NCBI RefSeq assembly: GCF_001548275.1
Contig: NZ_AP014945.1
Location: 600,001-632,000, forward strand
Direction of reading: 5' to 3'
DNA from: Caldimicrobium thiodismutans
GTDB lineage: Bacteria > Desulfobacterota > Thermodesulfobacteria > Thermodesulfobacteriales > Thermodesulfobacteriaceae
DNA length: 32,000 nucleotides
Part shown: positions 1-15,423 of the stretch, piece after piece
Numbering within the stretch: the stretch's first letter is position 1
Layout: every line of letters starts with the position of its first letter
Translations under genes and position numbers: made by a program
The notes under the pieces: generated by a model
What the model saw: the letters and a program-made list of their open reading frames with translations, nothing else
The model's database searches: none
Told to the model about the DNA's origin: nothing

Positions 1-1006
1 TTGGACTGATAGCTCCAATAAGTTCTGGAGTAAAAATTTGCCAAACCCTTTCCATAATTCCCAGACCAAGCTTAGAATTTCTATAGGTTTCCTCATCTCC
101 CTCATAGGGTATAATCAGATTGAAAAGGGGAACATTGAGTCTGGTCAAAACTGAAACCACCTCTTCAGGCTTTATCCCCACTTTCAAAGATAGCCCAAGA
201 AGTGCCCTAATTCTGAAAGGTCCCTTTAAAAAGACTCTCTCAAGAACCCTGGCATCAGGATATCCAAAGGCAGGAATAACCTCAATATCTTCCTCCCTAA
301 AAGCAGAAACAATCTTACAAATTACTTCGGTTTGAAAATTTAAAAGATTATTTCTATAAAAAGTAAGCCCGATTTTCGGCCTCTTTAACCTTTCTGGCTC
401 CCCTTCTAATTTAGCTAAAAATGCAGAAAATTCCTCTTCAGAATAAACCCTCTTTTCATCACAGTCATAAACCCCAAAAAGGGGCATCCTCTTTACAGGA
501 GAAGGATTGAGAGGGTATTGAAAATATTGACGAAGAAGATAGAGATAAAGATTATAAAGATTTTCAGGGCTACTCTCTCTATTGTAAGCTTCAATTGTTG
601 GATCAACCTCTATTCCGAGTTTTTTCATCTCCTCATCATAGGAACCTTCAGCATAAAGCCCAAAAATAAAGGCTTTCTTCTCTTTTAAAGAAGGAAGATA
701 CTCCTTTACCCTTTCATAAGCCCTTCTTCCCATAAGGTTTAGTAATAAAAGATCAGCCTCTTTAAGCTCCCTTTCAATCAAATCCTTTTTTTCCTCAAGA
801 CTCAAAATTCTTATTCTCGGTAAGGGAAGCCCCCTTTCTGAAAGGTCTCTAAGAAGCATCTCCCTTGCAGAACTAAAACTCTTTATCTGGGAGCTTGTTG
901 GTATCACTACTATATTAATGGATTTCTCTCCCTGGTCAGCAAAGAGAAAGGAAGAACAAAGAAAAAATAAAATTAGGCTCAAAAATAGACTATTCTTCAG
1001 GGACAT
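1..1006 (-). CDS. CobN/HmuS-like class I chelatase large subunit, N-terminal ~335 codons (gene continues beyond window start), with predicted Sec signal peptide
   Basis: Absent from the ORF track because it has no in-window stop. My reverse-strand translation from ATG 1006..1004 stays open to position 1: MSLKNSLFLSLILFFLCSSFLFADQGEKSINIVVIPTSS...ADLLLLNLMGRRAYE...RPKIGLTFYRNNLLNFQTEVICKIVSAFREEDIEVIPAFGYPD... It is collinear with the N-terminus of the CobN ORF at 15448 (SDLLLVYRS...APTIGILFSRHYWINDNLEVENLLISELEAKGFNVIPIFAY). It overlaps the upstream ORF's stop by 17 nt. The N-terminus is K-containing, then hydrophobic, then LFA/DQ. Confidence 0.75.
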   Translation of the reverse strand, partial: MSLKNSLFLSLILFFLCSSFLFADQGEKSINIVVIPTSSQIKSFSSAREMLLRDLSERGLPLPRIRILSLEEKKDLIERELKEADLLLLNLMGRRAYERVKEYLPSLKEKKAFIFGLYAEGSYDEEMKKLGIEVDPTIEAYNRESSPENLYNLYLYLLRQYFQYPLNPSPVKRMPLFGVYDCDEKRVYSEEEFSAFLAKLEGEPERLKRPKIGLTFYRNNLLNFQTEVICKIVSAFREEDIEVIPAFGYPDARVLERVFLKGPFRIRALLGLSLKVGIKPEEVVSVLTRLNVPLFNLIIPYEGDEETYRNSKLGLGIMERVWQIFTPELIGAISP

Positions 1007-1343
1007 AAACTATTCTTCCATCTTTTAATTGATAGGCAGTTCCAAGTTTTATGCCTTCCCCTTGAAGTTCTTTTTTAGTGACCTTTTTCACTTTTATTTC
1101 TTTACCTTTTTTTATTATAAACTCAAGTTCTCCATTTGGGGCTTTTTTTACCATAGTAAATTCACTTCTGGGATTTAATAAATCTATGAGGTGATAGACC
1201 ATAAAGAGACTTACAATAAGACTTACAATAAAAACCACACTCAAATCAAAGAGATTGGCAACCCCTGTGAGAGGGTCTTCAATAAGAGGTTCTTCCGTTT
1301 CAAGAAGGGATTTTTTTCTCCTTAAGAGTCTAAAATAACTCAT
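990..1343 (-). CDS. Small single-pass membrane protein with ExbD/TolR-like topology (DUF2149-like, family name recalled from memory)
   Basis: 117-aa ORF with a 4-nt overlap with the MotA-like gene. It has a charged N-terminus, then DPLTGVANLFDLSVVFIVSLIVSLFMVY with an Asp at the membrane entry, as in ExbD/TolR. The C-terminal domain is soluble and Lys/Glu-rich. Confidence 0.7.
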   Translation of the reverse strand: MSYFRLLRRKKSLLETEEPLIEDPLTGVANLFDLSVVFIVSLIVSLFMVYHLIDLLNPRSEFTMVKKAPNGELEFIIKKGKEIKVKKVTKKELQGEGIKLGTAYQLKDGRIVYVPEE

Positions 1344-1906
1344 CTTTCAACCTCGGAAGAGGAAATTTTTATTCTTTCCCTTTCAGCCAGGTAATAAATT
1401 TTACTTAAGGTTTCCTTATTCCAGCGTTCTTTGGTGATACTTAAGAGATAGGAGAGAGCTCCTATTGAGAGGCCAATGATTGCGGTGGTAAAGGCAGTAA
1501 CCATTCGTTCTGCCATAACTCCAAGGTTTCCCTTGGCAAGTTCTGAAAGGGCAACTCCCATGGGGATAAGAGTTCCAAGAAGGCCTAAAGCAGGCCCAAG
1601 CCTTACCATCACTCTTACCCTGTCAAGCCCTTTAAGAAGAGAAAGCTCAACCCTGTCAACAAGAAGAGAAACCTCAATCAAAAGGGCCTCTCCCTGAAAC
1701 TTCTCTTCCAACTTCTTTAGCTCTGCCTCAAAGAATTCCACATAAAAGTTTCTCCCCTCCCTTCTTTCAAAATATTCCCTTAAAATCTTTCCACTTTGAT
1801 ACACTAAATAAAAGATAAGAAAAGTGAGAGTAAGAAGCACTGGATAGAGAAGACTTTCTGCCAGAATAAAAAGAAAGCCCTCAAGAAGGTAAAAAGGATT
1901 GGTCAT
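1340..1906 (-). CDS. MotA/TolQ/ExbB proton-channel family protein
   Basis: 188 aa with an N-terminal TM segment, a cytoplasmic helical stretch and a C-terminal TM pair. It carries the family-typical GPALGLLGTLIPMGVAL...AFTTAIIGLSIGAL. There are 4-nt overlaps on both sides. Confidence 0.85.
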   Translation of the reverse strand: MTNPFYLLEGFLFILAESLLYPVLLTLTFLIFYLVYQSGKILREYFERREGRNFYVEFFEAELKKLEEKFQGEALLIEVSLLVDRVELSLLKGLDRVRVMVRLGPALGLLGTLIPMGVALSELAKGNLGVMAERMVTAFTTAIIGLSIGALSYLLSITKERWNKETLSKIYYLAERERIKISSSEVER

Positions 1907-2604
1907 AGCTTCCTCCTGATTTTGAATTGGAAAAACCCTGCTAAAAGGAAAATTAAAAAGAGAATAGAGAAAACTGCCAAAGTTTCCCCCTGATCTGGGA
2001 AAATCAAATTCGTGGAGTTGGCATTTTTTTGAAGGAAAAAAATCTCATTAAATCTCTGGGGAAAATAAAAACTTCCAAGTAGATACAGGGAAGAAAAAAG
2101 CATAACAAGGCCAAGCCATCTAAATCCCTCCTTTTCCCTGATCAGAAGCCCCTTAAAGGGGACCCTGAAAATTAAATAAAGGCTATAAGTAAGAACTAAA
2201 AAAGAAAGGGGAAGGATTAAGAAGGGAAGGGCATAAAATCTTTCAAACTTTTGAAAATATATTACTGAAAGGCTTATACTTAAGAGACACACAGGACAGG
2301 GCATAAGATAGAAGAGAAGGGCTCTGTGGGAGCAAGAGGGTCTAAAAAGAAGATAAGCCCCCCAAATGATTAAACCTAAGGCAGTAAAAAAATGAAGATA
2401 AACGCCCCTTTCAAGAAGGGGTAAAATAAGCCCTTCAAACCTGAGGGAAATTTCGTAGAAAAGATAAAAGAGAAGGGAATAAAGAATTATTATCAAAATA
2501 TGGGCCTTATAGCCCTTTAAAAGAGGCAAAACCAGGGCTACCTTTAAGGCAAAGACTCCCAAAGAAAAAAGAAGCCCTAAATAAGATAGAAGAAAATTAT
2601 CCAT
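1903..2604 (-). CDS. Polytopic membrane protein, predicted transporter (DUF2162-like, from memory) with CSH-x9-CPVC cluster
   Basis: 233 aa, almost entirely hydrophobic helices. It is the first gene of the minus-strand operon. C91/H93/C103/C106 (SCSHRALLFYLMPCPVCLL) are encoded at 2287..2334. Confidence 0.7.
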   Translation of the reverse strand: MDNFLLSYLGLLFSLGVFALKVALVLPLLKGYKAHILIIILYSLLFYLFYEISLRFEGLILPLLERGVYLHFFTALGLIIWGAYLLFRPSCSHRALLFYLMPCPVCLLSISLSVIYFQKFERFYALPFLILPLSFLVLTYSLYLIFRVPFKGLLIREKEGFRWLGLVMLFSSLYLLGSFYFPQRFNEIFFLQKNANSTNLIFPDQGETLAVFSILFLIFLLAGFFQFKIRRKL

Positions 2605-2611
2605 TTTGGCC

Positions 2612-2640
2612 TTGACAAGTTTTCATTTTTATGGTATAAA
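2612..2640 (+). promoter_or_regulatory. Sigma70-type promoter for the TBDT/cbiZ operon, overlapped by a dyad TGGTA-N8-TACCA (2632..2649)
   Basis: TTGACA (2612..2617), a 17-nt spacer, then TATAAA (2635..2640), about 88 nt upstream of ATG 2728. Confidence 0.5.
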
Positions 2641-2669
2641 TTTTTACCATCGTAATTTGGTTTACATAA

Positions 2670-2697
2670 ATTTTAACAGAGCCTTTTTTCTTGTCAA
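2670..2697 (-). promoter_or_regulatory. Candidate sigma70-type promoter for the minus-strand membrane/MotA/CobN-like operon
   Basis: On the minus strand: TTGACA (2697..2692), a 16-nt spacer, then TAAAAT (2675..2670). It faces the plus-strand promoter, so the predicted transcripts overlap by roughly 15-20 nt. Confidence 0.35.
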
Positions 2698-2727
2698 GGT
2701 TTATAGAAATTTTTAAGGAGGGAAGCT

Positions 2728-4715
2728 ATGAAAAAGAAGGAAATTTTAATGGGAGTTCTTTTTCTTAGTTTTTATGGAGGGAAATGTTATGGAGAGGAAA
2801 GTCAAGCAAGGGTTCTTCCCCAGATTGTGGTTACTGCAACAAAGATTGAGGAATCTCCTCTTGAGGTAAGTTCCTTTGTCAGGATAATCACGGAAGAGGA
2901 AATTAAAAAGAGCCCAGCCCAGAGCCTTGGAGATTTATTTCCTGAGCTCGGGCTTGGGCACACCCATAAGTATCCTGGAACCCTGACAGGCAGAATAAGT
3001 CTTCGGGGAATTACTTCGGATCTTTTTGATCCCTTAAAGGGTGGGGTTTTAATTCTCATTGATGGTCAGAGGGCTGGAACAGTAAATCTTGCCAAAATCC
3101 CCCTTGATAACATAGAAAGGATTGAGATTGTAAAAGGGCCTTTTTCAGCCCTTTATGGAACTCAGGCCATGGGAGGGGTAATAAATGTTATTACAAAAAG
3201 GGCTAAAAAAGAGGGCTTGGGCTTTAATATCTCTGCTGAGGCTGGCTCATGGAACTACTGGAAAGGGCTTTCGGAGCTTGAAATTAAAAAGACCTTTCCT
3301 GATTATGCAGTGGATTTTTATCTTCTTGGGGAAAGAGATTCAAGAGATGACTTTGATGCCAAAGGTTATGGAAGAATCAAAAACACCTCCTATGATGAGG
3401 GAGCCCTTGATGCCAAACTGGGACTCTCCTTTCTTAAAAATCACTATCTTTCCTTTGGAATTCAAAGTTTTCATGGTTGGGATATAGGAAGCCCTGGTGC
3501 AAGGTATAGCCCAAGCCTAAAGGATTATTCTGATAAAAAAAGGGATTCCTATAGCTTTCTTTATAAATTTAAGGAAATTGAACTAAGTTATGCCTACACC
3601 TTTGATCGCGATAGATGGCATTCTTTTTATGGAAGCAGTGAAAGCATTTCAACAAAGATTATGAAGGGAAAAGATCTAAATTGGAAGGTGCCTTTTAGTT
3701 TTGGTTCTCACAGATTTCTCCTTGGAGGAGAATACTATGAACTTGATGTGACTTCAAGGAGGAATGTGGGAGCCCCTTACTATCCCAATTCAGAATTTAA
3801 AAATTATGGAGGCTTTTTTCAGGCAAAACTCAATCTCTACAGGGAAAAACTTTTCTTAATTCCTGGAATAAGGTATGATTACTTTGAAACGGAAATACTT
3901 ACAACTCCCGGGATTAAAAACCTTAAGCCAAAGAAAGAGGACAAAGACCGCTTCACTGGAAAAATTGGCTTTCTCTATCGCTTAACCAATGAGTTAAGTC
4001 TTAAGGCTAATTTAGGGGAGGCCTATAGAACACCAACTGCAGATGAGTTAGCTGCAGATTATGTCTCTTCTTGGGGCACACGATATCTTGGAAACTCAAC
4101 TTTAAAGCCTGAAAAGGTTTACTCCTTTGATTTTGGATTAGATTATGGAGGAAAATTTGGCCTCTTAAGTTTTTCCTATTTTTATAATAAATATGATGAA
4201 AAATTTCTGGATATTATAATTCCCTAATCGGTGCTCAGACCTTTAAAAATATTGATGGGGCAACTATTCAGGGTCTTGAATTTTCCTATTCCAAAGAGTG
4301 GGTTGAGTTTATCCATCTTCCCATAAGTATAGAACCCTTTCTTCATTTTACCTATCATCTTCAATGTAGAGATGATGAAAGTAAGGCCTCCCTTCTTTAC
4401 ATACCAAAGGCTATAGCAAGCTTTGGGTTTAATTTGAGATATAGAGGCTTTAAGTTAAATCTTACGGGTATTTATAATGGTGATGAAAAGGTTCAGGACT
4501 GGGCTCCACCTTCTTATGGAAAAAAGATTATTGAAAAGAAGGATTTTACTATTTTTAACTTATACACTGGATATAGGTTTCAAAAATTTTCTTATATAAA
4601 GGAGGCAGAAGTTTATCTAAAGGTTGAAAACCTCTTTAATAGGGCCTATGAATATGTGAAATATTATCCTATGCCAGAGAGAACCTATTATTTGGGAGTG
4701 AGAGCAAAATTTTAA
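2728..4715 (+). pseudogene. TonB-dependent outer-membrane receptor interrupted by a 1-nt frameshift in an A5 run (4199..4203)
   Basis: ORF 2728..4227 has a signal peptide, TonB-box-like QIVVTATK and plug motif IEIVKGPFSALYGTQAMGGVINVITK. It stops just after FSYFYNKYDEK. The other frame continues without a stop from 4200 as KISGYYNSLIGAQTFKNIDGATIQGLEFSY... into track ORF 4434..4715, which ends YYLGVRAKF (typical terminal Phe). One extra A would restore a ~662-aa receptor. Confidence 0.8.
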
Positions 4716-4737
4716 GATTTTAGAGGATGAGGGAGGC

Positions 4738-5559
4738 ATGATGAAAAAAATCATTTTTGGGATTTTATTTCTTATTTTGACTTTGACTATGAAGAAGGGT
4801 TTTTCCACGGAAATTTCCTTACCAAAGGAATTAAAAGCCAGGGCTCAGATTATTAAATCCAAATATGATGATTTATGGGAAAAGACTCTTGTTATAACCT
4901 TTGATCATAAGAGAAAGGCCCTTTCAACCTTTGAATTCTTAAGAGAGGTTAGAGCGGTGATAAATCACTCAGCCCATCCTGAGATCTGGAAGAAAGTCTG
5001 CGAGGAGAGGAAAACTAAAAAATCCTTGGGTGGAAGGGTTTATCTTGAAAAGATTAGAGAAAAAATTGGAAAGGACTTCAATCTTTCAACTGAGGAGATT
5101 TTTATCTTAGGAACAGCAGCTGATATGGATAATTTAGCAGTGGTAACCAAAACCTGGGGTAGTTATGTAGTTACAGCTTTAGTTACAGCTGGAGCAAAGA
5201 CTAATGCTTTAAGAGCAGGGTTTGATGAGGGAAATTATACAGAGGAAGAGAAGCCTCAAGGCACAGTGAATATAATAATATTAACAAATAAGAAGCTAAG
5301 GGAGTCTGCCATGGCAAGAGCTATCATTACAGCCACAGAGGCAAAAACTGCTGCCTTTCAGGATTTAAAAGTTCCAAGCTCATATAATCCACAGGTTCAA
5401 GCTACAGGAACAGGCACAGATAATATCATTATAGTCTCAGGAGAGGAACCTCCAGAAATAACTTATACAGGAGGCCACAGCAAAATAGGAGAACTTATTG
5501 CAAAAGCCGTTTATCAAGCAGTAAAAGAGGCCCTAATTAAACAAAATCATTTTAAATAA
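4738..5559 (+). CDS. cbiZ: CbiZ-like adenosylcobinamide amidohydrolase family protein with N-terminal signal-peptide-like segment
   Basis: 273 aa with a GGGAGG RBS. Motifs recalled for the CbiZ family: LVTAGAKTNALRAG, GTVNIIILTN, AMARAIITATEAKTAAFQDL, ATGTGTDNIIIVS, YTGGHSKIGELIAKAVYQAV. The N-terminus is MMKKIIFGILFLILTLTMKKGFS. Confidence 0.7.
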   Translation: MMKKIIFGILFLILTLTMKKGFSTEISLPKELKARAQIIKSKYDDLWEKTLVITFDHKRKALSTFEFLREVRAVINHSAHPEIWKKVCEERKTKKSLGGRVYLEKIREKIGKDFNLSTEEIFILGTAADMDNLAVVTKTWGSYVVTALVTAGAKTNALRAGFDEGNYTEEEKPQGTVNIIILTNKKLRESAMARAIITATEAKTAAFQDLKVPSSYNPQVQATGTGTDNIIIVSGEEPPEITYTGGHSKIGELIAKAVYQAVKEALIKQNHFK

Positions 5560-5650
5560 AAGTTTTCATGCTTAACTTAAGCTCCCTCCTTCTTAATCAC
5601 CCCCTCTATTAGATTTTTTCCTATCCATGCTCTATCAAATTTCACCTATT

Positions 5651-5709
5651 CTTGTGAAAAAATTTTCAAATGCTACTAATTTTTAAATCGTAGCATAAAG
5701 TTTTATTAA
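5651..5709 (+). promoter_or_regulatory. Conserved 59-nt promoter/operator element, copy A (upstream of the TBDT remnant/CooC/ABC operon)
   Basis: 53/59 ungapped identities with 10292..10350 by manual alignment. It contains TTGTGA (5652..5657), a 17-nt spacer and ACTAAT (5675..5680). It also has dyad TGAAAA-NN-TTTTCA (5655..5668) and dyad GCTAC-N13-GTAGC (5672..5694). Confidence 0.55.
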
Positions 5710-5734
5710 GATTGGATACATAATAAGGGGGGGC

Positions 5735-6323
5735 ATGAGGAGATTTACTTATGTAGGGGCTGCGCTATGGGGATTTTTAGCAAGCATAACTCTGGTTAAA
5801 GGAGCCCTTTCAGAGGAAATTAAGGAAACAAAGGAACTTCCTGAGGTGGTTGTAAAAGGGGAGAAGCTTATTCTTCCTACTAAAGAGACTGGGGAGACGG
5901 TCTATACTGGTGTTGAGATTACCCGGGAGGGGATTGAACTTTCAGGAGAGCGAGGAAAAGGAAATGTTTGGGAGGCATTAAGTATCATTCCTGGGGTAAT
6001 TTTTGAGAGTGTTGATCCAGCCAATCTTTCCGCTGAGCAATCTAATGTAAGAATAAGAGGGGTCAGAGGATATCTCGGTGGTCTTACTGTGCAGGGAGTT
6101 CCCAATTATGGGGCAAATCCTATTGGGCCAAGGGCTTATCTATATGACCTTGAAAATTTTGAAAGTATCGCCCTTTATAAAGGAGCAGTTCCTGTTAATC
6201 TTGGGGCAGGAGTTGGAAACAGGGCAGGTCTTAATAAATGCCTTTGATGATAGTGTTGGGGAAACAAGTTATGGAGCTGGAGCTCCTTTTTCTGTAAAGG
6301 GGATTATAGAATTTAACTTTTAA
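5735..6323 (+). pseudogene. TonB-dependent receptor remnant: plug domain joined to the C-terminal beta-strand, barrel deleted, plus a frame change near 6230..6247
   Basis: ORF 5735..6247 (170 aa) has a signal peptide, ELPEVVVKGEK and plug-like VRIRGVRG...ESIALYKGAVPVNLGAG, then stops. The adjacent frame ends ...INAFDDSVGETSYGAGAPFSVKGIIEFNF, a typical TBDT C-terminus. Only ~590 nt are available before the next gene, against ~2000-2300 nt for an intact receptor. Confidence 0.7.
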
Positions 6324-6341
6324 ATAGGGAGGAGTTTTAAG

Positions 6342-7121
6342 GTGTCTAAAATACTTGTCTCAGGAAAAGGAGGAGTGGGAAAAAGTTTCTTTTGTGTAGC
6401 CCTTGCCAAAGCCTTTGAAAGAGAGAATTTCAAGGTGCTTCTTATTGATGCCGATGAGAGCAATCAAAGTCTTTACAGACTTCTTGGTTTTGAAGCGCCC
6501 GTTCTTTCTTATATGGATTATCTTGGAGGAAAGAAGGTCTTTAAAGAGAGACTTCGTAAGGCTTTTCAGAGTGGAACCAAAGAGCCTCAAATTGAGATTT
6601 CAAATGAAAATATTCAGGGGATTTCTGCCCTCCCTAAGGAGATTCTTTTACAGAGAGGAAATATCTTTTTGCTTTCTGTAGGGAAAATAAAAGAGCCTCT
6701 TGAGGGATGTGCCTGTCCTATGGGGGTTCTCGGAAGGGAACTTTTAGAGAGATTTAAACCTCTTCAAGGAGAAGTTGTTATAATTGATACTGAAGCTGGT
6801 CTTGAGCACTTTGGAAGAGGCCTTGAAAAAGGGGTTGATAAAATTATTGCCCTTTCAGAACCCTATCTTGATGCCCTTGAGGTAGCCCAAAAAATTTTAG
6901 AATTTGCCCAGAGTATGGGAAAGCCTGCCTATCTCATTCTAAACAAAGTTCCTGAAGAAATGAAAGAAAACCTCTCTTCTTTCCTTCTTGAATGGGGTCT
7001 TAATCCCCTTTTAATTTTGCCCTGGAAAAAGGAGATCTATCTAAACTCCCTTTATGGAAAAAGCTATGAAGAAGAAAGTATTCTTCTAAAATTACAAAAA
7101 ATTATTCCAGAAATTCTTTAG
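6342..7121 (+). CDS. CooC/MinD-type P-loop NTPase with CxC metal-binding motif (metallochaperone-like)
   Basis: GTG start with a GGGAGGAG RBS. It has the deviant Walker A SGKGGVGKS and IDADESNQ. EGCACPMG (CxC encoded at 6708..6716) resembles the CooC/AcsF nickel-insertion NTPase motif. 259 aa. Confidence 0.7.
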   Translation: MSKILVSGKGGVGKSFFCVALAKAFERENFKVLLIDADESNQSLYRLLGFEAPVLSYMDYLGGKKVFKERLRKAFQSGTKEPQIEISNENIQGISALPKEILLQRGNIFLLSVGKIKEPLEGCACPMGVLGRELLERFKPLQGEVVIIDTEAGLEHFGRGLEKGVDKIIALSEPYLDALEVAQKILEFAQSMGKPAYLILNKVPEEMKENLSSFLLEWGLNPLLILPWKKEIYLNSLYGKSYEEESILLKLQKIIPEIL

Positions 7122-7136
7122 ATTAGGGAGGAATCT

Positions 7137-8237
7137 ATGAGGATAAAAAGGGTTTTTATGGGAATGATGCTTTTTTTCTTTTTTTGGGTTTCTTTAGGTC
7201 TGGCAGAGGAATTTCAAATTATCAAGGATCAATTTGGTAGAGAGGTAAAAATTCCAAAGAAAATAGAAAGAGTTGTTGCTATTAATGGAGCCTTAAGGTA
7301 TGTGGTGTATTTACAGGCTATGGAGAAGGTAGTTGGAGTTGAGGCAGTTGAAAAGAGAGGCCTTATGAAGGGCCTTATAGCTTCAGGGAAACCATACTGG
7401 TCAGCCATAAAAGATAGAGTTAAGGATCTTCCTGAAATTGGAGAGGGAGGACCAGGGAAATATCCTGATGTAGAAAAGTTGTTGAAAGTAAAACCAGATT
7501 TAATCATTGCCCTTGAGCCCGATATGGCAGATTCCCTCATGAAGAATACCGGGATTCCCGTTGTGGTTATTAAACATGCTGGAACAAGTGGCTTTGATGT
7601 TGAAGAAAATAAGGAAACCTTTCTTTTTCTTGGAAGGCTTCTTGGAAAGAGTGAGAGAGCTAAAAGTTTATGTGCCCTTATAGATAGTTATCTTAGTGAC
7701 TTAAAAAAGAGAGGGGGAACTGAACAGAAATTTTCTGTTTATGTGGGAGCAATTTCAGCAAGGGGTCCACATGGAATCACAAGCACCCAAGCAAAGTATC
7801 CACCCTTTAGTTTTCTGGGAATTAAAACTCCTGTAGATACTCTAAAAGAAGAAGGGCATCTTTTCATTGATAAAGAGAGGCTTCTCCTTATGGATCCTGA
7901 TTATATCTTTATTGACACTGGAGGGCTTTCTATTGTTTCAGAGGACTACAAAAAAAATCCCTCTTTTTATGAGGCTTTAAAGGCCATAAAAAATAAAAAG
8001 GTTTATACCCTCTATCCCAGCAATTTTTATAGAACCAATGTGGAAGTAATTTTTGCCAATGCCTATTTTATTGGTAAGGTTCTCTTTCCTGAGAAATTTA
8101 AAGATATTGATCCTCATGTCAAGGCAAGAGAAATAATAAAAAATTTTGTGGGAAAGGATGTCTATGAAGAGCTTAAAAGAAACTATCCAGGCTTTAAACA
8201 GCTCAAATTTGAAGGAGGAAGCCTCATTTTTAACTGA
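7137..8237 (+). CDS. Periplasmic substrate-binding protein of an iron-complex/corrinoid-type (BtuF/FecB-like) ABC importer
   Basis: Signal peptide MRIKRVFMGMMLFFFFWVSLGLA. KIERVVAINGA...KVKPDLIIA is typical of class III binding proteins. It sits upstream of FecCD-type permease and ATPase genes. Confidence 0.8.
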   Translation: MRIKRVFMGMMLFFFFWVSLGLAEEFQIIKDQFGREVKIPKKIERVVAINGALRYVVYLQAMEKVVGVEAVEKRGLMKGLIASGKPYWSAIKDRVKDLPEIGEGGPGKYPDVEKLLKVKPDLIIALEPDMADSLMKNTGIPVVVIKHAGTSGFDVEENKETFLFLGRLLGKSERAKSLCALIDSYLSDLKKRGGTEQKFSVYVGAISARGPHGITSTQAKYPPFSFLGIKTPVDTLKEEGHLFIDKERLLLMDPDYIFIDTGGLSIVSEDYKKNPSFYEALKAIKNKKVYTLYPSNFYRTNVEVIFANAYFIGKVLFPEKFKDIDPHVKAREIIKNFVGKDVYEELKRNYPGFKQLKFEGGSLIFN

Positions 8238-9291
8238 GCCCACTCCTTTAAGCACTTTAAAAGAACTATATAAGAAAACTCTTTTTAAAAAAACCCTTTT
8301 TGGTATTTTCCTTCTCATTTTTCTTTTTTTAGCTGGATGTATCTCTTTATTAGTAGGAAGTGGAGTATTTAATCCCTTTACTCTTTTCTTTTCCCAGGGG
8401 GAGTATTCAGGCCTTATTTTTAAGTTAAGAATGGTAAGAATTGGTTCAGCCATAGTTGCCGGAGCAAGCCTTGGGCTAACAGGGGCAATTATGCAGACTG
8501 TTCTTCGCAATCCCTTAGCTTCACCTTTTACTCTTGGGATCTCCCACGGAGCAGCTTTTGGGGCCTCCTTTGCCATAATTGTCCTTGGAGCAGGAAAATT
8601 TCACGCCTCCATTACTGCAGGCCTCAGTATCTCCTCCTATTTCCTGGTAGTCCTTTTTGCCTTTCTTTTTGCCTTTCTTGGAACCCTCCTTATTCTTTTT
8701 CTCTCCTTTGTTAGGAATCTTAAACCTGAAGCCATTATTCTCTCTGGAGTTGCCTTAGGAAGCCTTTTTACCTCAGCAACCATGATACTTCAATACTTTG
8801 GTGAAGACTTTCAGGTTGCAGCAACTCTCTTCTGGACCTTTGGAGATCTTGGAAAAGCTGGCTTACAGGAGTTAAAAATTATGGGATTTTTCTTCTTAAT
8901 TCTCTTTCCCTTTTGCCTTTTTCTCAGTTGGAAATTGAATGCCCTTCTCTGGGGAGATGAGATAGCTCAAAGCTTAGGAATTGAAGTAAAAAAGTTGCGT
9001 TTAATCAGTCTTTTGATTTCTGCTTTTTTGGTTTCGGTATGCACATCCTTTCTCGGGATAATAGGCTTTATAGGATTAATTTCTCCTCATATAGTGAGAC
9101 TTCTTATTGGGAATGATCATCGCTTTCTCCTTCCTTATTCTGCCTTAACAGGAGCTCTACTTCTTACCCTTTCTGATCTCCTTTCTCGCATAATTCTCTC
9201 TCCCCATACACTTCCTGTTGGAGTCATTACCACCTTCCTTGGAGCACCTCTTTTCTTTATCCTTTTGATAAGAAAAAACCGGAGCTTTTGA
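8164..9291 (+). CDS. FecCD/BtuC-family ABC importer permease
   Basis: Motifs RNPLASPFTLGISHGAAFGA and PVGVITTFLGAPLFFILL, with about 9-10 TM segments. The start is uncertain. The track gives 8146; I prefer ATG 8164, preceded by GAAAGGA at good spacing. Either start overlaps the binding-protein gene by 74-92 nt. Confidence 0.85.
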   Translation: MKSLKETIQALNSSNLKEEASFLTEPTPLSTLKELYKKTLFKKTLFGIFLLIFLFLAGCISLLVGSGVFNPFTLFFSQGEYSGLIFKLRMVRIGSAIVAGASLGLTGAIMQTVLRNPLASPFTLGISHGAAFGASFAIIVLGAGKFHASITAGLSISSYFLVVLFAFLFAFLGTLLILFLSFVRNLKPEAIILSGVALGSLFTSATMILQYFGEDFQVAATLFWTFGDLGKAGLQELKIMGFFFLILFPFCLFLSWKLNALLWGDEIAQSLGIEVKKLRLISLLISAFLVSVCTSFLGIIGFIGLISPHIVRLLIGNDHRFLLPYSALTGALLLTLSDLLSRIILSPHTLPVGVITTFLGAPLFFILLIRKNRSF

Positions 9292-9295
9292 AGAA

Positions 9296-10051
9296 GTGAT
9301 AGAGGTTAAAAATTTAAGGGTTTTTTTGAAAAAAAGGGAGATTCTTAAGAATTTAAGTTGTTTCTTTCAGAATAACAGGCTCTATGCCCTTCTTGGACCA
9401 AATGGTGCAGGAAAAACTACTTTTTTAAAAACCCTTTGCGGAATTCAATCCTACAGAGAGGGCGAAATTCTAATTATGGGAAGGTCCCTGAAAACCCTTT
9501 CTTCCACAGAGCGAGCAAAAATTATGGCTTACCTTCCTCAAAGACTAAATCTACCTCCCAATTTCTCTGTGTTTGAATCAATTCTTCTTGGAAGGATACC
9601 CCACTTCTTCTTTGAACCCAAAGAGGAGGATTTAAATAAAGTTGAAGAAGTTATAGAGCTTTTAAACATTAATGATTTTGTAAAAAGAAGTGTTAGAGAA
9701 CTTAGCGGAGGAGAATTTCAAAAGGTCTTAATTGGAAGAGCCCTTGCCCAGGAACCCAAAATCCTCCTTCTTGACGAACCAGTAAATCATTTAGATCCAA
9801 AAAATCAAATAGAAATCATGGAACTATTACAAAAAATAATATCTATTAAAAATATACTTGTTATAATGGTGCTTCACGATCTCAATCTTGCTTTAAGATT
9901 TGCTGATAATTTTCTTTTCCTTAAAGATGGAAAACTCCTTTATGAAGGGGACAGTGAATCTATTGATGAAAACTTATTAAGGGAGACCTTTGAAATCTCG
10001 GGTATCTTTCTTCATATTGAAAATAGGAAATTCTTTCTTATAGCCCCTTAA
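9296..10051 (+). CDS. ABC importer ATPase (FecE/BtuD-like)
   Basis: Walker A GPNGAGKTT, signature LSGGEFQ, Walker B ILLLDEP and H-loop VLHD. GTG start, N-terminus MIEVKNLRV. Confidence 0.85.
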   Translation: MIEVKNLRVFLKKREILKNLSCFFQNNRLYALLGPNGAGKTTFLKTLCGIQSYREGEILIMGRSLKTLSSTERAKIMAYLPQRLNLPPNFSVFESILLGRIPHFFFEPKEEDLNKVEEVIELLNINDFVKRSVRELSGGEFQKVLIGRALAQEPKILLLDEPVNHLDPKNQIEIMELLQKIISIKNILVIMVLHDLNLALRFADNFLFLKDGKLLYEGDSESIDENLLRETFEISGIFLHIENRKFFLIAP

Positions 10052-10119
10052 GTATCCCCTCAAGGTTTCTCCTGAAATAAGGGGGCTTGAAGAGAAGAAA
10101 TGAGTTTATGTTTTTTACC

Positions 10120-10266
10120 ATGCCAGAGAGAAGTAAAGACTGGTTAAATCAAGCTTTAAAAGATTTGGAGCATGCTAAGCTCTCCTTAGAGCATAAAAAT
10201 TATGAATGGGCCTGTTTTGCATCCCATCAAGAAGTAATTGCAAAAGAAACCCTTTGGGTGATATAG
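10120..10266 (+). pseudogene. Truncated HEPN-domain (toxin-antitoxin type) gene remnant, 48 codons
   Basis: Below the ORF-track length cutoff. My translation: MPERSKDWLNQALKDLEHAKLSLEHKNYEWACFASHQEVIAKETLWVI*. It matches the N-terminal helices of HEPN proteins (..DWL.QA..DL..A...L....YEWACF...Q). The C-terminal Rx4-6H region is missing. An alternative ATG lies at 10108. Confidence 0.5.
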
Positions 10267-10291
10267 CCTTCTAAGTCTCCCCATTCTATTT

Positions 10292-10350
10292 CTTGTGAAA
10301 AAAATTTCAAATGCTATTCATTTTAAAATCGTAGCATTAATTTTTATTAA
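10292..10350 (+). promoter_or_regulatory. Conserved 59-nt promoter/operator element, copy B (upstream of the intact TBDT operon)
   Basis: 53/59 identical to 5651..5709. It has TTGTGA (10293..10298) and dyad TGAAA-N4-TTTCA (10296..10309), and ends 35 nt before ATG 10386. Confidence 0.55.
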
Positions 10351-10385
10351 TCTTCAAAAAATAATATCAAAGGTGGGAGGGGAGT

Positions 10386-12689
10386 ATGAAAAAGGGATAT
10401 CTTATAAGTTTTGCAGTTTTAGGATCAATAGCAAATTTGATAGTTGCAGGGCATGGATTTTCTGAGGAGGTTAAGAAAGAGGAAGTAAAGAAGGCTGAAG
10501 AACTGCCTGAGGTTGTGGTTACTGCAACAAGAACAGAAATCCCTGTTGAGGCCTCTCCTGCAAGTGTGAATGTAGTAACCAAGGAGAAAATAGAATTAAA
10601 AAAGCCAAAGACTATTGATGAGGCCTTAAATGATATTTCTGGGGTGATGATAAGGAGAGGAAAGGGTCTTATGGATACCTTAGCTTCCATTCAACTTAGA
10701 GGGTTTGGGGAACAAAAACGCTCTCTTATCTTGTTAGATGGGATCCCCTTAAATAATGCCTATACAGGAGGAGTTAAGTTAGGTGGTTTTTTCCCGGAGG
10801 ATTTAGAAAGGGTTGAGGTAGTAAAAGGGCCCTTTTCTTCTCTCTGGGGTGGCTATGCTATGGGAGGGGTTGTTAATTTTCTTACTAAAATGCCTGAAAA
10901 AAGAGAAATTACCATTAAAGCTGGATATGGCTCCTCCTTTGATAGAGGAGATGCTATGGATGATTTAAAAAGGGTATATGTAAGTTATGGAGATAAAATG
11001 GGAAAATTTAGCTTCTTTTTAAGTTATGGAAGGCATGATACCAACGGATATCCTACAGATTTTAATATTAGACCAGGGGGAGAATATAAAAGTATTGACC
11101 CGCCACCGAATTATCTTTCTGGATGGCGTATAACTCAAGATAGATATGGTAATCTTCAGTATTTAATTGGGGACAAAGGTGATAATAGATGGTGGGATGA
11201 TGGTATAACTATCAAGGCTCAATATGAGTTTGATAAAAATACAAGACTTAGGCTAACTTATCTTAGAAATCGCTATGAATATAATTATGATGAACCTCAT
11301 ACTTATTTAAGAGATGCTTCCGGAAATCTAGTTTTTAATGATGACACATGGAAATATACCACCATTGATAATAGAAAATTTAAGATGGTTTCTGAATATA
11401 CTTATCTTCCTGGCGCAGGTGGAAGGGTTCAGAACATCTGGGGTGCCCTTTTTGAAACAGAATTATTCAAAAAACTTAAAACCAAGTTAAATCTCTCTTA
11501 CACAACTGCTGAAAAGGATTGGTATGTATCTGTAGGAGGTGGCGCAAGGATTGAAGGGTGCCCTCCTGGAACTGCTCCTGAACAGTGTGGTTATGTCACT
11601 AATACTCCTCAAAAAGCCTTTCAGGGAGACCTTCAGTTTAGTGTGCCAATTTTTAATAATCAAATTCTTACCTTTGGTTCTGCTTATAGATGGGAGTATG
11701 CAGACACTAAAGAGAAATACTTAAAAAACTGGAAGGATGAAACCTCAACAGTAAAACTTAAGTATCAATCCAAAGGAAAAACAAGAACCTGGTCAGTTTT
11801 TGCTCAAGATGAAATTATGTTAACAGAAAAAATAACTGCCTATCTTGGGGTAAGATATGATAACTGGAAGACCTATGATGGTTATGTGAATCAAGTTGGA
11901 ACGCCAGGTTATCCCAAGGAGTATCCTTCAAACACTGAAGAGTCCTTCTCTCCAAAGGTTTCTCTTGTTTATAAGCCCTTTGAAGGAACCCTTTTAAGAG
12001 GGTCCATAGGAAAGGCCTTTAGACCTCCAACAGTTTATGAACTTTATAGAACCTGGACTACCTCAAGGGGTATCACCTATGCGGGAAATCCAAATCTTAA
12101 GCCTGAAACTACAACTTCCTATGAACTTGGAATAGAGCAAAAACTCTGGAAGGGTGCCAAATTAAGTTTTACCTATTTTTATAATGATATGGAAGACCTT
12201 ATTTACAGAAAAACAGTTAATGCAACTTATCAGGAATTAATCAATGTTGGGTCTGCAATGTCACAGGGATTTGAAGCAGGCCTTGAACAGAAATTTGATT
12301 TTGGATTAAGGCTCTTTGTCAATCTTACTTATACAGACTCAGAAATTAAAGAAAACAAAGTAAAACCTCAAACTGAAGGGAAAAGGCTTACTTATCTCCC
12401 CCTTTGGATGGGAAATATTGGTGCTGAGTTTAAAAGAGGTAAATGGTCTTTCTATGTAGTGGGAAGGTATAGAGATAAATGGTATATGGATGACGAAAAT
12501 AAAGACAAAAAATCAAGGGTTTATGGCTCTTATGATGAATACTTTGTAGTTGATGTAAGAGCAAGTTATCAGGTAAATAAATGGATAAATTTCTCTATTT
12601 CAGGAGATAATATTTTTGATAGAGATTATTATTATTACTACAAAGCACCAGGTGCATCATGGTTTGCAGAACTTACTTTAAAATTCTAA
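10386..12689 (+). CDS. TonB-dependent outer-membrane receptor (intact, 767 aa)
   Basis: Signal peptide, TonB-box-like ELPEVVVTATR and plug motif VEVVKGPFSSLWGGYAMGGVVNFLTK. Barrel motifs GNPNLKPETTTSYELG are present, and the C-terminus is WFAELTLKF. Confidence 0.92.
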   Translation: MKKGYLISFAVLGSIANLIVAGHGFSEEVKKEEVKKAEELPEVVVTATRTEIPVEASPASVNVVTKEKIELKKPKTIDEALNDISGVMIRRGKGLMDTLASIQLRGFGEQKRSLILLDGIPLNNAYTGGVKLGGFFPEDLERVEVVKGPFSSLWGGYAMGGVVNFLTKMPEKREITIKAGYGSSFDRGDAMDDLKRVYVSYGDKMGKFSFFLSYGRHDTNGYPTDFNIRPGGEYKSIDPPPNYLSGWRITQDRYGNLQYLIGDKGDNRWWDDGITIKAQYEFDKNTRLRLTYLRNRYEYNYDEPHTYLRDASGNLVFNDDTWKYTTIDNRKFKMVSEYTYLPGAGGRVQNIWGALFETELFKKLKTKLNLSYTTAEKDWYVSVGGGARIEGCPPGTAPEQCGYVTNTPQKAFQGDLQFSVPIFNNQILTFGSAYRWEYADTKEKYLKNWKDETSTVKLKYQSKGKTRTWSVFAQDEIMLTEKITAYLGVRYDNWKTYDGYVNQVGTPGYPKEYPSNTEESFSPKVSLVYKPFEGTLLRGSIGKAFRPPTVYELYRTWTTSRGITYAGNPNLKPETTTSYELGIEQKLWKGAKLSFTYFYNDMEDLIYRKTVNATYQELINVGSAMSQGFEAGLEQKFDFGLRLFVNLTYTDSEIKENKVKPQTEGKRLTYLPLWMGNIGAEFKRGKWSFYVVGRYRDKWYMDDENKDKKSRVYGSYDEYFVVDVRASYQVNKWINFSISGDNIFDRDYYYYYKAPGASWFAELTLKF

Positions 12690-13657
12690 TTTTAATTATA
12701 TTTATATTTTGCTTAACTGAAGAAGGTTTTGCTAAAACCTTAAGTGTTACTGATGTTCTTGGGAGGAAAGTAACTGTTAAAGTTCCTGTTAAAAGGGCAG
12801 TTATAGCTATAACTCCTGAGCTTATTCCAGCTCTTGATATTTGGGATCAGGTTGCAGGAGTTTCAGACTGGGCAGAAAAAAGTTGTAGTGTTTATCAGGC
12901 CTTTGTCTTTAGTGGTTTAAAGGTAAGAAAGCCAACTGTTGGAACAGGGTCAAATTTAAATATAGAGGCCATTTTGAAATTAAATCCTGATGTGGTTATT
13001 ACCTGGAGTTACAACACAAAGGTTATAGAGTTTCTTGAATCAAAAGGTGTAAAGGTTATAGCTATCTGGCCCGAAAGTATTGGCGAGCTTTATGAAGTTA
13101 TTAGACTTCATGGGAAGCTCTTTGGAAAGGAAAATCAGGCAGAAAGGGTAATAGCTGAAATGGAGAAAATGCTAAACTTTATAAGTGAAAGAGCTAAACA
13201 AATTCAGACTAATAAGAGAAAGAAAGTTCTCCATCTTGGAGGAAAGCCCACAACTGTTTCTGGGAGAATCGGGATTACCAATGATGTTATAAAACTAATT
13301 GGGGGGATAAATGTAGGAGCCGAAATTCCCTCCAGAAATGCAGATGTCTCAGTTGAGAGGATTATTAATTGGAACCCGGATATAATTTTTATTTGGGGGT
13401 CTGCTGGCTATGATGAAACTTGGATTTATAACAATTCTCAGTGGAAATTTATAAAGGCGGTAAGAGAAAGAAAGGTTTACAAGCTTCCTCATTGGTCAAC
13501 CTGGTCTCCAAGGCTTGCACCCATTGTTCTTTATATGGCAATAAAGACCTATCCTGAAGTTTTTGGTGATGTGAATTTTGAAAAAATGGTTGATGAATTC
13601 TACCAAAAGGTCTTTGGCCTTTCCTTTAAAGAGGTAAGAAAATATGAAAAGTTATAG
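12659..13657 (+). CDS. Periplasmic substrate-binding protein, BtuF/FecB-like
   Basis: Signal peptide (FKILILIIFIFCLTEEGFA). VKRAVIAITPELIPALDIWDQVAGVS and KLNPDVVITW are typical. It overlaps the receptor's 3' end by 31 nt. The start is not independently supported by a strong RBS. Confidence 0.8.
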   Translation: MVCRTYFKILILIIFIFCLTEEGFAKTLSVTDVLGRKVTVKVPVKRAVIAITPELIPALDIWDQVAGVSDWAEKSCSVYQAFVFSGLKVRKPTVGTGSNLNIEAILKLNPDVVITWSYNTKVIEFLESKGVKVIAIWPESIGELYEVIRLHGKLFGKENQAERVIAEMEKMLNFISERAKQIQTNKRKKVLHLGGKPTTVSGRIGITNDVIKLIGGINVGAEIPSRNADVSVERIINWNPDIIFIWGSAGYDETWIYNNSQWKFIKAVRERKVYKLPHWSTWSPRLAPIVLYMAIKTYPEVFGDVNFEKMVDEFYQKVFGLSFKEVRKYEKL

Positions 13658-14645
13658 AGGATTAGTGATTGCTATTTCTCCTATTTTAGTAGGGTGGGTG
13701 GCGTTATTTTTAGGAGCCTATCACATAAGTCCTTTTTTTGTTTTAAAAATTCTTGTCAATGAAATTTTACATATTTATAAAGTTGGAGATATTCCAGAAA
13801 AAACTATTGTCTGGGATATAAGACTTCCAAGGGTTATTATGGCCTTTTTTGTTGGGGCAAGTCTTTCTTCTGCAGGAGTAACCTTACAGGCTATTTTTAG
13901 AAATCCCCTTGTTGACCCCTTTATTCTTGGGATTTCAGCAGGAGCTGCCTTTGGATGTGCCATAACTATAGGTTTTTTAGAAATATTTCCTATTCAGTTT
14001 ATGGCTTTTGTCTTTGCTCTTTTAGCTGTTCTTCTTGCTTATTTTGTTGCAAGGACTCAGGGTGAGATAAGTAGACTTCCCCTTGTTCTTTCTGGAGTTA
14101 TAGTTTCAGCCTTTTTCCAAGCTCTTGTTTCAATTGTTAAATTTATTGTTGATCCTCATAGACTTCAAAGTATTGTTTACTGGCTTATGGGAAGTTTTAG
14201 CCTTTCAGACTGGCAAACTGTGAAATGGGTTCTCCCTGGAATTATTCTTGGAATCTTTCCCCTTTTACTTATGCGCTGGAGGTTAAATGTGCTAAGTATG
14301 GGAGAGGAAGAGGCTAAAATGCTCGGTATCAATGTAGCAAGAGAAAGAGCTCTCTTTATTGTTTTTTCAGCCTTAGCAGTTGCAATAGCCACATCTGCTT
14401 GCGGAATAATTGGCTGGGTTGGGCTTATGGTTCCCCATCTTATAAGAATGATAGTAGGGCCAGACCACAAAGTGCTTTTACCACTTAGTCTGTGTGGAGG
14501 AGGAGCCTTTATGATTGCTGCAGATACTCTCTCAAGAACTATTACAAATTTTGATATTCCTGTAGGAATTATTACGGCTTTAACGGGTGCTCCCTTTTTT
14601 ATCTATCTTATGAAAAGAGGTGGGAAAGAAGCTTGGGGAAAATAA
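13644..14645 (+). CDS. FecCD/BtuC-family ABC importer permease
   Basis: Motifs RNPLVDPFILGISAGAAFG and IPVGIITALTGAPFFIYLM. A GAGGTAAG RBS precedes it, and it overlaps the upstream gene by 14 nt. Confidence 0.88.
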   Translation: MKSYRGLVIAISPILVGWVALFLGAYHISPFFVLKILVNEILHIYKVGDIPEKTIVWDIRLPRVIMAFFVGASLSSAGVTLQAIFRNPLVDPFILGISAGAAFGCAITIGFLEIFPIQFMAFVFALLAVLLAYFVARTQGEISRLPLVLSGVIVSAFFQALVSIVKFIVDPHRLQSIVYWLMGSFSLSDWQTVKWVLPGIILGIFPLLLMRWRLNVLSMGEEEAKMLGINVARERALFIVFSALAVAIATSACGIIGWVGLMVPHLIRMIVGPDHKVLLPLSLCGGGAFMIAADTLSRTITNFDIPVGIITALTGAPFFIYLMKRGGKEAWGK

Positions 14646-14646
14646 A

Positions 14647-15423
14647 ATGCTTGAAGTAAAAAATTTAACCTTTAAACATAAGGGTGAAAATCGGGAAATC
14701 TTAAGGGAGATTATCTTTACTGCAAGCCCTAAGGAAATTATTACTATACTGGGACCTAATGGGGCTGGGAAATCAACCCTTTTTAAATGTATTTCTGGAA
14801 TATGGAATGATTATGAGGGAGAAATTAGATTTCAGGGAGAGAGAGTAGATAAGTTTTCCTTTGAGAGGAGAGCTAAATTTTTTGCCATAGTTCCTCAAGA
14901 GCATGAGCCACCTTTTTCCTATTCAGTATTAGATGTGGTTCTTACAGGAAGAGCAAGTTATATAGGACTTTTTTCAAGCCCAAAAAGGGAGGATTATGAA
15001 AAGGCAGAGGAGGCTTTAGAGCTTGTGGGAATTAAACATCTGAAAGATAAAGCTTATACTAAAATTAGCGGTGGAGAGAGACAGCTTACTCTCATTGCCA
15101 GAGCTCTTGTTCAAGAGGCACCCGTTCTTCTTCTGGATGAACCCACAAGTCACTTAGACTTTAGAAATCAAGTCATAGTTCTAAACACAGTAAAAAAACT
15201 CGCTAAAGAAAAGAATCTCACAGTTATAATGACCCTCCATGATCCCAATCTTGCAAGCCTTTTTTCTGATAAAATTGTAGTTTTAAAAAAAGGAAAAGTA
15301 TTTCACAATGGATGCCCTTCAGAAGTAATTAAAAAAGAAATACTTGAAAAAGTTTATGAAATACCAATAGAAACTTTAAATAATGAAAAATTAACTTTTG
15401 TATATCCAAATTTAGAAATATAA
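14647..15423 (+). CDS. ABC importer ATPase (FecE/BtuD-like)
   Basis: Walker A GPNGAGKST, signature ISGGERQ, Walker B LLLDEP and H-loop TLHD. I prefer ATG 14647 (MLEVKNLTF, with GGGGA upstream) to the track's 14620 start. Confidence 0.88.
   Translation: MLEVKNLTFKHKGENREILREIIFTASPKEIITILGPNGAGKSTLFKCISGIWNDYEGEIRFQGERVDKFSFERRAKFFAIVPQEHEPPFSYSVLDVVLTGRASYIGLFSSPKREDYEKAEEALELVGIKHLKDKAYTKISGGERQLTLIARALVQEAPVLLLDEPTSHLDFRNQVIVLNTVKKLAKEKNLTVIMTLHDPNLASLFSDKIVVLKKGKVFHNGCPSEVIKKEILEKVYEIPIETLNNEKLTFVYPNLEI

Follow-up and report, generated by a model that had tools for sequence, protein, structure and literature searches.

Class I chelatases are the textbook example of metal insertion driven by ATP, and those of their relatives that are exported from the cytoplasm cannot use ATP. 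What could serve such a relative instead is the question raised by four adjacent genes, here designated T, U, V and S, which lie at the start of a 32,000-nucleotide stretch of the Caldimicrobium thiodismutans genome (contig NZ_AP014945.1, positions 600,001 to 632,000; this whole stretch is referred to as the window). S encodes a CobN-like protein with the features of an exported one, U a subunit of a MotA/TolQ/ExbB-family proton channel, V a single-pass DUF2149 protein, and T a polytopic DUF2162 membrane protein. We observed joint inheritance of U, V and S in archaea as well as in bacteria. We tentatively favour the reading in which S is an extracytoplasmic chelatase homologue that has a dedicated proton-driven partner, U/V, and belongs to the cobalt/corrinoid economy; its probability is, in our estimate, about 0.45.

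Protein families and gene content identify the four genes as the BtuS/HmuS-type module of Caldimicrobium, a kind of module which has already been named and is poorly understood. The sequence-only reading of this DNA had presented the module as a possible distant, uncharacterised relative of the hmuYRSTUV locus, which overstated its novelty: the name BtuS was introduced in 2003 for exported CobN-like proteins of B12-regulated receptor operons (Rodionov 2003, as cited in PMC6460266), the exported topology of BtuS was predicted in 2018 (PMC6460266), and HmuS of Bacteroides thetaiotaomicron was described in 2025 as a membrane-bound NADH-dependent heme dechelatase, with a cryo-electron microscopy structure (PMC12583661). 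The module is thus of a known kind, extended here to Thermodesulfobacteriota and to a corrinoid-linked branch. What is added is the U-V-S linkage over 80 loci, the archaeal T-U-V-S modules and the riboswitches in relatives; the window itself places the cytoplasmic and the exported chelatase arrangements in one corrinoid-uptake island, and the gain from the window alone is modest.

Composition of the operon

The genes and the candidate promoter in front of them are located as follows.

1903-2604, minus strand: T, DUF2162 polytopic membrane protein, 233 amino acids (Pfam DUF2162, E 6e-25)
1340-1906, minus strand: U, proton-channel subunit of the MotA/TolQ/ExbB family, 188 amino acids (Pfam MotA_ExbB, E 5.6e-10)
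990-1343, minus strand: V, DUF2149 single-pass protein (Pfam DUF2149, E 3e-28)
1-1006, minus strand: S, the N-terminal 335 codons of an exported CobN-like protein of the BtuS/HmuS type (Pfam CobN-Mg_chel, E 2.4e-24)
2670-2697, minus strand: candidate T-U-V-S promoter, TTGACA-16-TAAAAT with TG (11 of 12 consensus matches)

The coordinates of the open reading frames (ORFs) confirm that the four minus-strand genes overlap by 4, 4 and 17 nucleotides along the T-U-V-S chain, as had been read from the sequence. All Pfam matches, including that of the S fragment, exceed the curated cut-offs (for U, 39.5 bits with a cut-off of 22.9; for the S fragment against PF02514, the class I chelatase large-subunit superfamily, 85.7 bits with a cut-off of 24.5), and the profile search upholds the placement of S in the CobN family. 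The S gene starts with the ATG at 1006 and extends past the window start; as a TAG stands two codons 5' of this ATG, it is the earliest possible start. The promoter-like site upstream of T is a consensus match only, and the total of such sites in the region equals the chance expectation.

An exact-match look-up of V gave two long contigs, L001 and L002, the latter with an intact S gene that encodes a full-length orthologue of 1317 amino acids (L002:7315-11268). Its closest named relative, 98% identical, carries an annotation from Caldimicrobium thiodismutans, which belongs to Thermodesulfobacteriota. Directly downstream of S on the same strand, just outside the window, there is a 501-amino-acid protein without a Pfam family (L002:11318-12823), followed by a CTP_transf_like protein and then by a DUF3108 protein.

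Linkage of U, V and S in bacteria and archaea

A scan with the DUF2149 alignment, with one genome per species, yielded 80 loci from Thermodesulfobacteriota, Nitrospirota, Planctomycetota (anammox), Verrucomicrobiota, Acidobacteriota, Bacteroidota, several proteobacterial classes and other groups. Their ORFs were screened with the window proteins by phmmer, and the neighbours were counted in the 35 loci with at least 8 kilobases on both flanks. U adjoins V in all 74 evaluable loci, and S adjoins V in 74 of 77, the three exceptions being contigs that end too soon. The synteny on which the sequence-only reading depended is therefore borne out by the neighbourhood survey. In the full-flank loci, the following neighbours were observed.

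U and S: 35 of 35
TonB-dependent receptor adjoining the module: 31 of 35
DUF2162 protein (lower bound): 17 of 35
CbiZ: 12 of 35
Standard ExbB-ExbD pair: 8 of 35
BtuFCD-type genes: 8 of 35
TonB: 7 of 35

The DUF2162 count is a lower bound because phmmer undercounts T: two loci that seemed to have no T proved to have DUF2162 by Pfam. ChlI and ChlD had no match in any of the 80 loci.

The V and S genes overlap by 14 nucleotides in at least 29 loci and by 17 nucleotides in the window (990-1006). The start codon of S sits within the invariant terminal Tyr-Val codons of V (TAT GTN), hence the recurrent N-termini of the MCRNN or MFLNK type in S. This conserved translational coupling fits a physical partnership of V and S.

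Archaeal members were reached by a search of representatives followed by contig look-up. In Methanoculleus and ANME-1 we observed DUF2162, MotA_ExbB, DUF2149 and CobN-Mg_chel genes in the T-U-V-S order of the window; in Syntrophoarchaeum, T-U-V is followed by an uncalled frame of 1286 codons, and in an Archaeoglobales contig by the contig end. The ANME-1 and Syntrophoarchaeum modules adjoin CbiM/N/Q/O metal transporters and cobalamin genes. As archaea have neither an outer membrane nor TonB-dependent receptors, U/V cannot be solely a receptor energiser. The DUF2149 family (COG4744/arCOG03208) has been described as near-universal in one methanogen class and linked to TolQ (PMC9425974).

Predicted location of S

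The N-terminus of S, MSLKNSLFLSLILFFLCSSFLFA/DQ, contains a signal-like segment, and the C-terminus of the full-length orthologue consists of a hydrophobic helix followed by the basic tail RGYLRR. In a set of 120 S homologues (38-98% identity), a hydrophobic N-terminal segment is present in 100 proteins, often with an AxA-type site, and the proteins without such a segment mostly resemble over-extended start calls; the C-terminal helix with the basic tail is present in 115. A signal-like segment was found in every S checked from related loci, and both terminal features also occur in S of Methanoculleus, ANME-1, Prevotella (HmuS), Runella and Trichlorobacter. Given the positive-inside rule, these two conserved termini place the bulk of S outside the cytoplasm, in line with the export initially proposed from the N-terminus. 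The protein is predicted to be held on the cytoplasmic membrane by the C-terminal helix with its basic cytoplasmic tail, and the N-terminal segment may be either cleaved or retained as a second anchor. This topology agrees with the published one, as both HmuS and BtuS have been described as periplasmic and anchored in the inner membrane, based on predictions and fractionation data (PMC6460266, PMC12094164, PMC13227078).

The NCBIfam CobN and BchH models both match S below threshold (for the CobN equivalog, 907 with a cut-off of 1619). A PDB sequence search with the 335-amino-acid fragment alone gave no match, the full-length orthologue being required; with the latter, the matches are HmuS (9d26, 5.5e-132), CobN (9uk9, 3.8e-129) and ChlH (4e-121). 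In a neighbour-joining tree, which has a single outgroup and no support values and hence allows for coarse placement only, all S proteins group apart from the cytoplasmic CobN of the window; HmuS and the archaeal S proteins branch early, and the Caldimicrobium S lies among other bacterial S proteins, near the Trichlorobacter group.

The U/V pair and the variable T slot

The sequence-only reading had taken U and V for a stator pair of the ExbB-ExbD type. For U this holds: in addition to the MotA_ExbB match, its second transmembrane helix carries an LGLLGT motif (GPALGLLGTL, as read from the sequence). V does have a basic N-terminus and one transmembrane helix with a conserved Asp33 (motif NLFD), which in the alignments of bacterial and archaeal proteins is invariant or almost invariant, with Glu in its place in Runella. 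However, V belongs to DUF2149 and has no Pfam ExbD match, and its likeness to ExbD is limited to the helix with the acidic residue. In the AlphaFold model of V (predicted local distance difference test score, pLDDT, 69), there is a helix at 24-56 and six strands, the predicted C-terminal periplasmic domain being small, all-beta and ending in GTAYQLKDGRIVYVPEE. Thus, V would resemble the ExbD/TolR/MotB plug in its layout and is, by its sequence, not a member of that family. NCBIfam has no model matching T, U or V.

T had been described as a Cys/His membrane protein, and both kinds of residues are indeed present; of these, only the P-C-P-x-C motif (residues 102-106, in a helix) and His71 are invariant from bacteria to archaea, together with Lys21 and Gly82, whereas the SCSH motif is not conserved. 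The conserved residues suggest a soft-metal site or a redox-active dithiol. The position of T in the operon is the variable part of the module. Depending on the lineage, it is occupied by unrelated polytopic proteins (L006:8605-9231; L018:7695-8378; L066:7571-8311; L005:8635-9333): in Runella by a weakly NicO/DsbD_2-like protein within a hydrogenase-maturation (hyp) cluster, in Prevotella by HmuT, and elsewhere by at least two other families without annotation; some betaproteobacterial loci seem to have no T slot at all. No similarity was detected between DUF2162 and the Runella slot protein, or between DUF2162 and several other lineage-specific polytopic proteins. Since the T slot varies between lineages, U-V-S looks like the invariant engine, and the accessory membrane protein in the T slot looks substrate-specific.

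Equating T with HmuT was rejected: DUF2162 has no detectable homology to Prevotella HmuT.

Metal context

The window is a corrinoid/metal uptake island, as it contains, by Pfam, three TonB-dependent receptors, a CbiZ gene and two sets of the BtuF/BtuC/BtuD type. Among 28 related bacterial loci, 17 have Rfam cobalamin riboswitches immediately upstream of the receptor/T-U-V-S operon (L004, L027, L045 and L050 were noted), and several have two in tandem. The CbiZ of the window has a signal-like N-terminus and is likely to be a periplasmic companion of the module; in relatives, the CbiZ next to S sometimes forms a fusion with a periplasmic binding domain of the BtuF type (L016:4723-6732). The signal-bearing CbiZ and the CbiZ-BtuF fusions suggest periplasmic trimming of corrinoids. 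The riboswitches in relatives, along with CbiZ, BtuFCD, the cobalamin genes and the archaeal CbiMNQO, point to a cobalt/corrinoid rather than a heme-iron economy in this clade.

Other members of the family have other contexts. The Runella module lies in a nickel context, within the hyp cluster. The PA1922-PA1925 operon of Pseudomonas aeruginosa is Zur-regulated and has a zinc context (PMC4542158, PMC9431628), its function being still unknown in 2025 (PMC13083405), and the Methanothermobacter protein called CobN1 is made only under nickel limitation (PMC12350162). In Runella and in the two archaeal loci that were tested, those of Methanoculleus and ANME-1, Rfam found no cobalamin riboswitch.

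A possible proton-driven partner for S

By analogy with the 5:2 complexes ExbBD, TolQR and MotAB, U and V could form a proton-driven stator. Its output partner would be S, in which it would drive conformational work or else turnover and product release, as the AAA+ proteins ChlI/ChlD or CobS/CobT do in the cytoplasm. The adjacent TonB-dependent receptor would supply S with a metallated tetrapyrrole or chelate, whose metal S, by analogy with HmuS, could strip or exchange. T with its P-C-P-x-C motif, or another T-slot protein, may carry either the metal or reducing equivalents through the membrane. Within this clade, the module would serve the economy of cobalt and corrinoids rather than that of heme iron.

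The coupling of the proton motive force to S via U/V is made more plausible by the linkage of U-V-S in archaea, the lack of ChlI/ChlD nearby and the presence of separate ExbBD-TonB sets. U/V are not the sole stator of the locus, as a standard ExbB-ExbD-TonB set is present at 22203-23810. Since the module occurs in archaea, has no AAA+ partner nearby and often shares the locus with a standard ExbBD(-TonB) set, U/V probably serve S rather than the TonB-dependent receptor. Purified HmuS comes to a halt after 1-2 turnovers and perhaps requires further factors (PMC12583661), and the authors working on Porphyromonas gingivalis noted that HmuT/U/V may affect activity (PMC13227078); the two observations leave room for a motor.

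Several points weigh against a dedicated proton-driven partner of S in the cobalt/corrinoid economy. A contact between U/V and S is hypothetical. The C-terminal helix of S was examined for unusual conservation, a possible sign of a specific docking site; it is not specially conserved (mean column identity 0.39 vs 0.55 elsewhere), except for a Gly-aromatic-basic ending and for a VxG[YF]xM motif that precedes the linker. Homology of V to ExbD was dropped, as hhalign gave a probability of 0.5% with only the helix aligned, Asp on Asp, and a Foldseek search of the V model (pLDDT 69) against PDB gave nothing below E 0.5 and no ExbD-like fold. As a receptor adjoins the module in most bacterial loci, U/V may have a role in outer-membrane transport. 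The metal in Caldimicrobium is uncertain, given the nickel, zinc and iron contexts of other members, and in the window no cobalamin riboswitch was found at positions 1-16000, with either gathering or permissive (E<=5) thresholds. We know of no precedent for enzymatic removal of cobalt from a corrin. Finally, HmuS in isolation takes the iron out of heme with just NADH and no ATP, and hence a motor is perhaps unneeded for the chemistry (PMC12583661).

A broader form of this reading, which we hold possible and somewhat less probable than the favoured one, is that the MotA/ExbB-DUF2149 pair is the obligate proton motor of all exported class I chelatase homologues of bacteria and archaea, replacing the AAA+ proteins, and that together they form a generic extracytoplasmic machine extracting metals from chelates that bind them very tightly. 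Which metal is extracted would depend on the lineage: iron from heme in Bacteroidota, cobalt in this clade with its B12 riboswitches, nickel in Runella and in the methanogens, and, under Zur, zinc or cobalt in Pseudomonas. Were this so, the published drawing of HmuU/V as the power source of the outer-membrane receptor would be wrong.

HmuS is the only exported relative studied in isolation. If the proton channel is the missing partner, it would become clear by what means anaerobes free tetrapyrroles of their metals outside the cytoplasm. DUF2149, DUF2162, the Zur-regulated PA1922-25 operon and the methanogen genes annotated as cobN would also gain a function, and the ExbB/TolQ/MotA motor family a third kind of output. 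The idea of such energy coupling conflicts with the role usually ascribed to HmuU/V.

Alternative roles of the module

The strongest of the alternatives, itself unlikely in our view, is that S is a plain orthologue of HmuS, that is, a periplasmic heme dechelatase taking iron from heme imported by the adjacent receptor, as in Bacteroidota. HmuS is the best PDB match of the full-length S, the best NCBIfam model of the adjacent receptors, although below its cut-off, is a heme/hemoglobin receptor subfamily, and in Bacteroides fragilis BtuS1 and BtuS2 take part in using heme iron (PMC6460266). The superfamily histidine (His-538 of HmuS, in GTHG) is kept, the S orthologue having HLGTHG; in the displayed alignment it is present in 17 of 18 S proteins, Methanoculleus being gapped there. 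The Met-Gly of S (LMGRR) aligns with Met-79 of HmuS, in an N-terminal alignment that is weak, phmmer leaving the N-terminal domains unaligned.

However, the margin by which HmuS leads CobN is trivial (445 vs 436 bits), S is only 27% identical to Prevotella HmuS, and the two fall into different branches of the rough tree. The position of His-254, the heme ligand in the His-Gly-Arg motif of HmuS, reads LKV in S, again within poorly aligning N-terminal domains, and LDHVYEF of HmuS aligns with DNDDYFQY of S, so that His-1209 and Glu-1212 are replaced by Asp and Gln. Prevotella HmuS has a Met-rich insertion (14 Met in 40 residues at about 784), which appears to be absent from the S orthologue, the latter being approximately 150 amino acids shorter, with phmmer skipping HmuS residues from about 695 to 896. 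In addition, HmuY is not present at this locus, and the relatives are under cobalamin riboswitches.

Less likely still is an arrangement in which S works unassisted and U/V are an extra ExbB/ExbD-like energiser of the neighbouring TonB-dependent receptor. This is the published role of HmuU/V (PMC12583661, Fig. 1 legend) and was suggested for PA1924 (PMC4542158); it would agree with the receptor adjoining the module in 31 of the 35 loci and with HmuS having some activity alone. Nevertheless, T-U-V-S is kept in archaea that have no outer membrane or TonB-dependent receptors (PMC9425974), TonB is not encoded in most loci, and V has no ExbD-type periplasmic domain. A standard ExbBD-TonB set is available both in the window and in the Trichlorobacter locus, and a standard ExbBD pair in 8 of 35 loci, while it is S rather than the receptor that shows the strictest linkage and the translational coupling.

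Equally doubtful is a role of S as a periplasmic corrinoid binding and hand-off protein, or a forward chelatase, acting with CbiZ and BtuFCD in salvage or remodelling while U/V drive release or transfer: the three TonB-dependent receptors, the signal-bearing CbiZ and the two BtuF/C/D sets of the window, the CbiZ-BtuF fusions adjoining S and the cobalamin riboswitches in relatives, and the hand-off of heme suggested by the P. gingivalis authors (PMC13227078) all speak for it, yet the histidine of the catalytic core and the body motifs are conserved in S, the nickel and zinc members and the archaeal ones beside metal-ion ECF (energy-coupling factor) transporters better fit the handling of metal ions (PMC12350162, PMC4542158), and the T-slot proteins resemble ion permeases (P-C-P-x-C in T, NicO/DsbD_2-like in Runella).

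Comparison with known systems

The closest described system is the hmuYRSTUV locus of P. gingivalis and its relatives, which encodes HmuY, a TonB-dependent receptor, the CobN-like HmuS, a hypothetical membrane protein HmuT, the MotA/TolQ/ExbB-family HmuU and the DUF2149 protein HmuV (PMC11681262, PMC10434189); the link to this locus that was drawn in the sequence-only reading proved correct, and we confirmed the layout on a Prevotella nigrescens replicon. The module shares with HmuS/T/U/V of B. thetaiotaomicron and P. gingivalis (PDB 9d26) an exported, membrane-tethered CobN-like protein with MotA/ExbB and DUF2149 partners, an operon that also encodes a small polytopic membrane protein, a TonB-dependent receptor as neighbour, and the lack of AAA+ subunits. 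It differs in gene order, which is S-T-U-V there and T-U-V-S here, in T, which here is a DUF2162 protein with P-C-P-x-C whereas HmuT has no Pfam family, and in having a corrinoid rather than a heme context, with no HmuY.

Like BtuS, S is predicted to be exported and anchored in the membrane, its relatives carry cobalamin riboswitches, and it is clustered in the window with a divergent receptor, CbiZ and two BtuF/C/D sets. Unlike in the BtuS operons, no riboswitch is detectable at the window locus, the receptor gene is divergent, and the phylum is Thermodesulfobacteriota; the BtuS work does not seem to deal with the role of the U/V partners.

CobN-CobS-CobT and ChlH-ChlI-ChlD have a homologous large subunit (PF02514) with the GTH histidine. 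They are, however, cytoplasmic, AAA+ ATP-driven and metal-inserting, whereas S is predicted to be extracytoplasmic and occurs with a proton-channel family, with no AAA+ neighbour over 80 loci. With ExbB-ExbD-TonB, TolQ-TolR-TolA and MotA-MotB, the module shares U, by Pfam, and the layout of V, i.e. a basic N-terminus and a helix with an essential-looking acidic residue; similarly to TonB and TolA, S would be tethered by a single helix, although its anchor is C-terminal. The differences from ExbBD, TolQR and MotAB are that V, with its small all-beta domain, is not detectably homologous to ExbD, and that the module occurs in archaea.

Two further systems were compared by published description. 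P. aeruginosa PA1922-PA1925 comprises a TonB-dependent receptor and CobN-like, ExbB/D-family and DUF2149 proteins (PMC4542158, PMC9431628), and Methanothermobacter CobN1 is an archaeal CobN-like protein responding to metal limitation (PMC12350162). They differ in the regulatory metal, zinc and nickel, respectively, vs the B12/cobalt context here.

Other genes of the window

The remaining genes of the uptake island and its surroundings are the following.

2728-4715, plus strand: TonB-dependent receptor, divergent and interrupted (ORFs 2728-4227 and 4434-4715; Pfam Plug and TonB_dep_Rec_b-barrel)
4738-5559, plus strand: CbiZ-family (adenosylcobinamide) amidohydrolase with a signal-like N-terminus (Pfam CbiZ, E 1e-53)
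5735-6247: receptor remnant, a 170-amino-acid plug domain, where L001 and L002 have a 751-amino-acid gene
6342-7121: CbiA/ParA/MinD-type P-loop protein, 259 amino acids, between the receptor remnant and a BtuF-like gene
15448-22135, plus strand: cytoplasmic class I chelatase set (CobN as two ORFs, ChlI, ChlD; Pfam)
22203-23810, plus strand: standard ExbB-ExbD-TonB set (Pfam MotA_ExbB 6e-31, ExbD 3e-24, TonB_C 3e-19)

The signal-less CobN with ChlI and ChlD, which had been reported beside the exported protein, is real, except that CobN is encoded as two ORFs, 15448-17844 (798 amino acids) and 17837-19315 (492 amino acids). They join at ATGAATAA, with a GGAGGG Shine-Dalgarno sequence just upstream, an arrangement that resembles a naturally split gene more than a frameshift error. 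ChlH, not HmuS, is the best PDB match of this CobN, and its best NCBIfam model differs from that of S.

The orthologue of the interrupted receptor is intact (662 amino acids, L002:3605-5593). The window thus differs from both L001 and L002, and the two damaged receptor genes may represent pseudogenes or errors of assembly. In its right-hand part, the window contains tRNA-Ser(GGA) (23821-23914), a 1062-amino-acid PAS-GAF-GGDEF-EAL protein (23927-27115) and SelA (28660-30054), apparently unrelated to the module.

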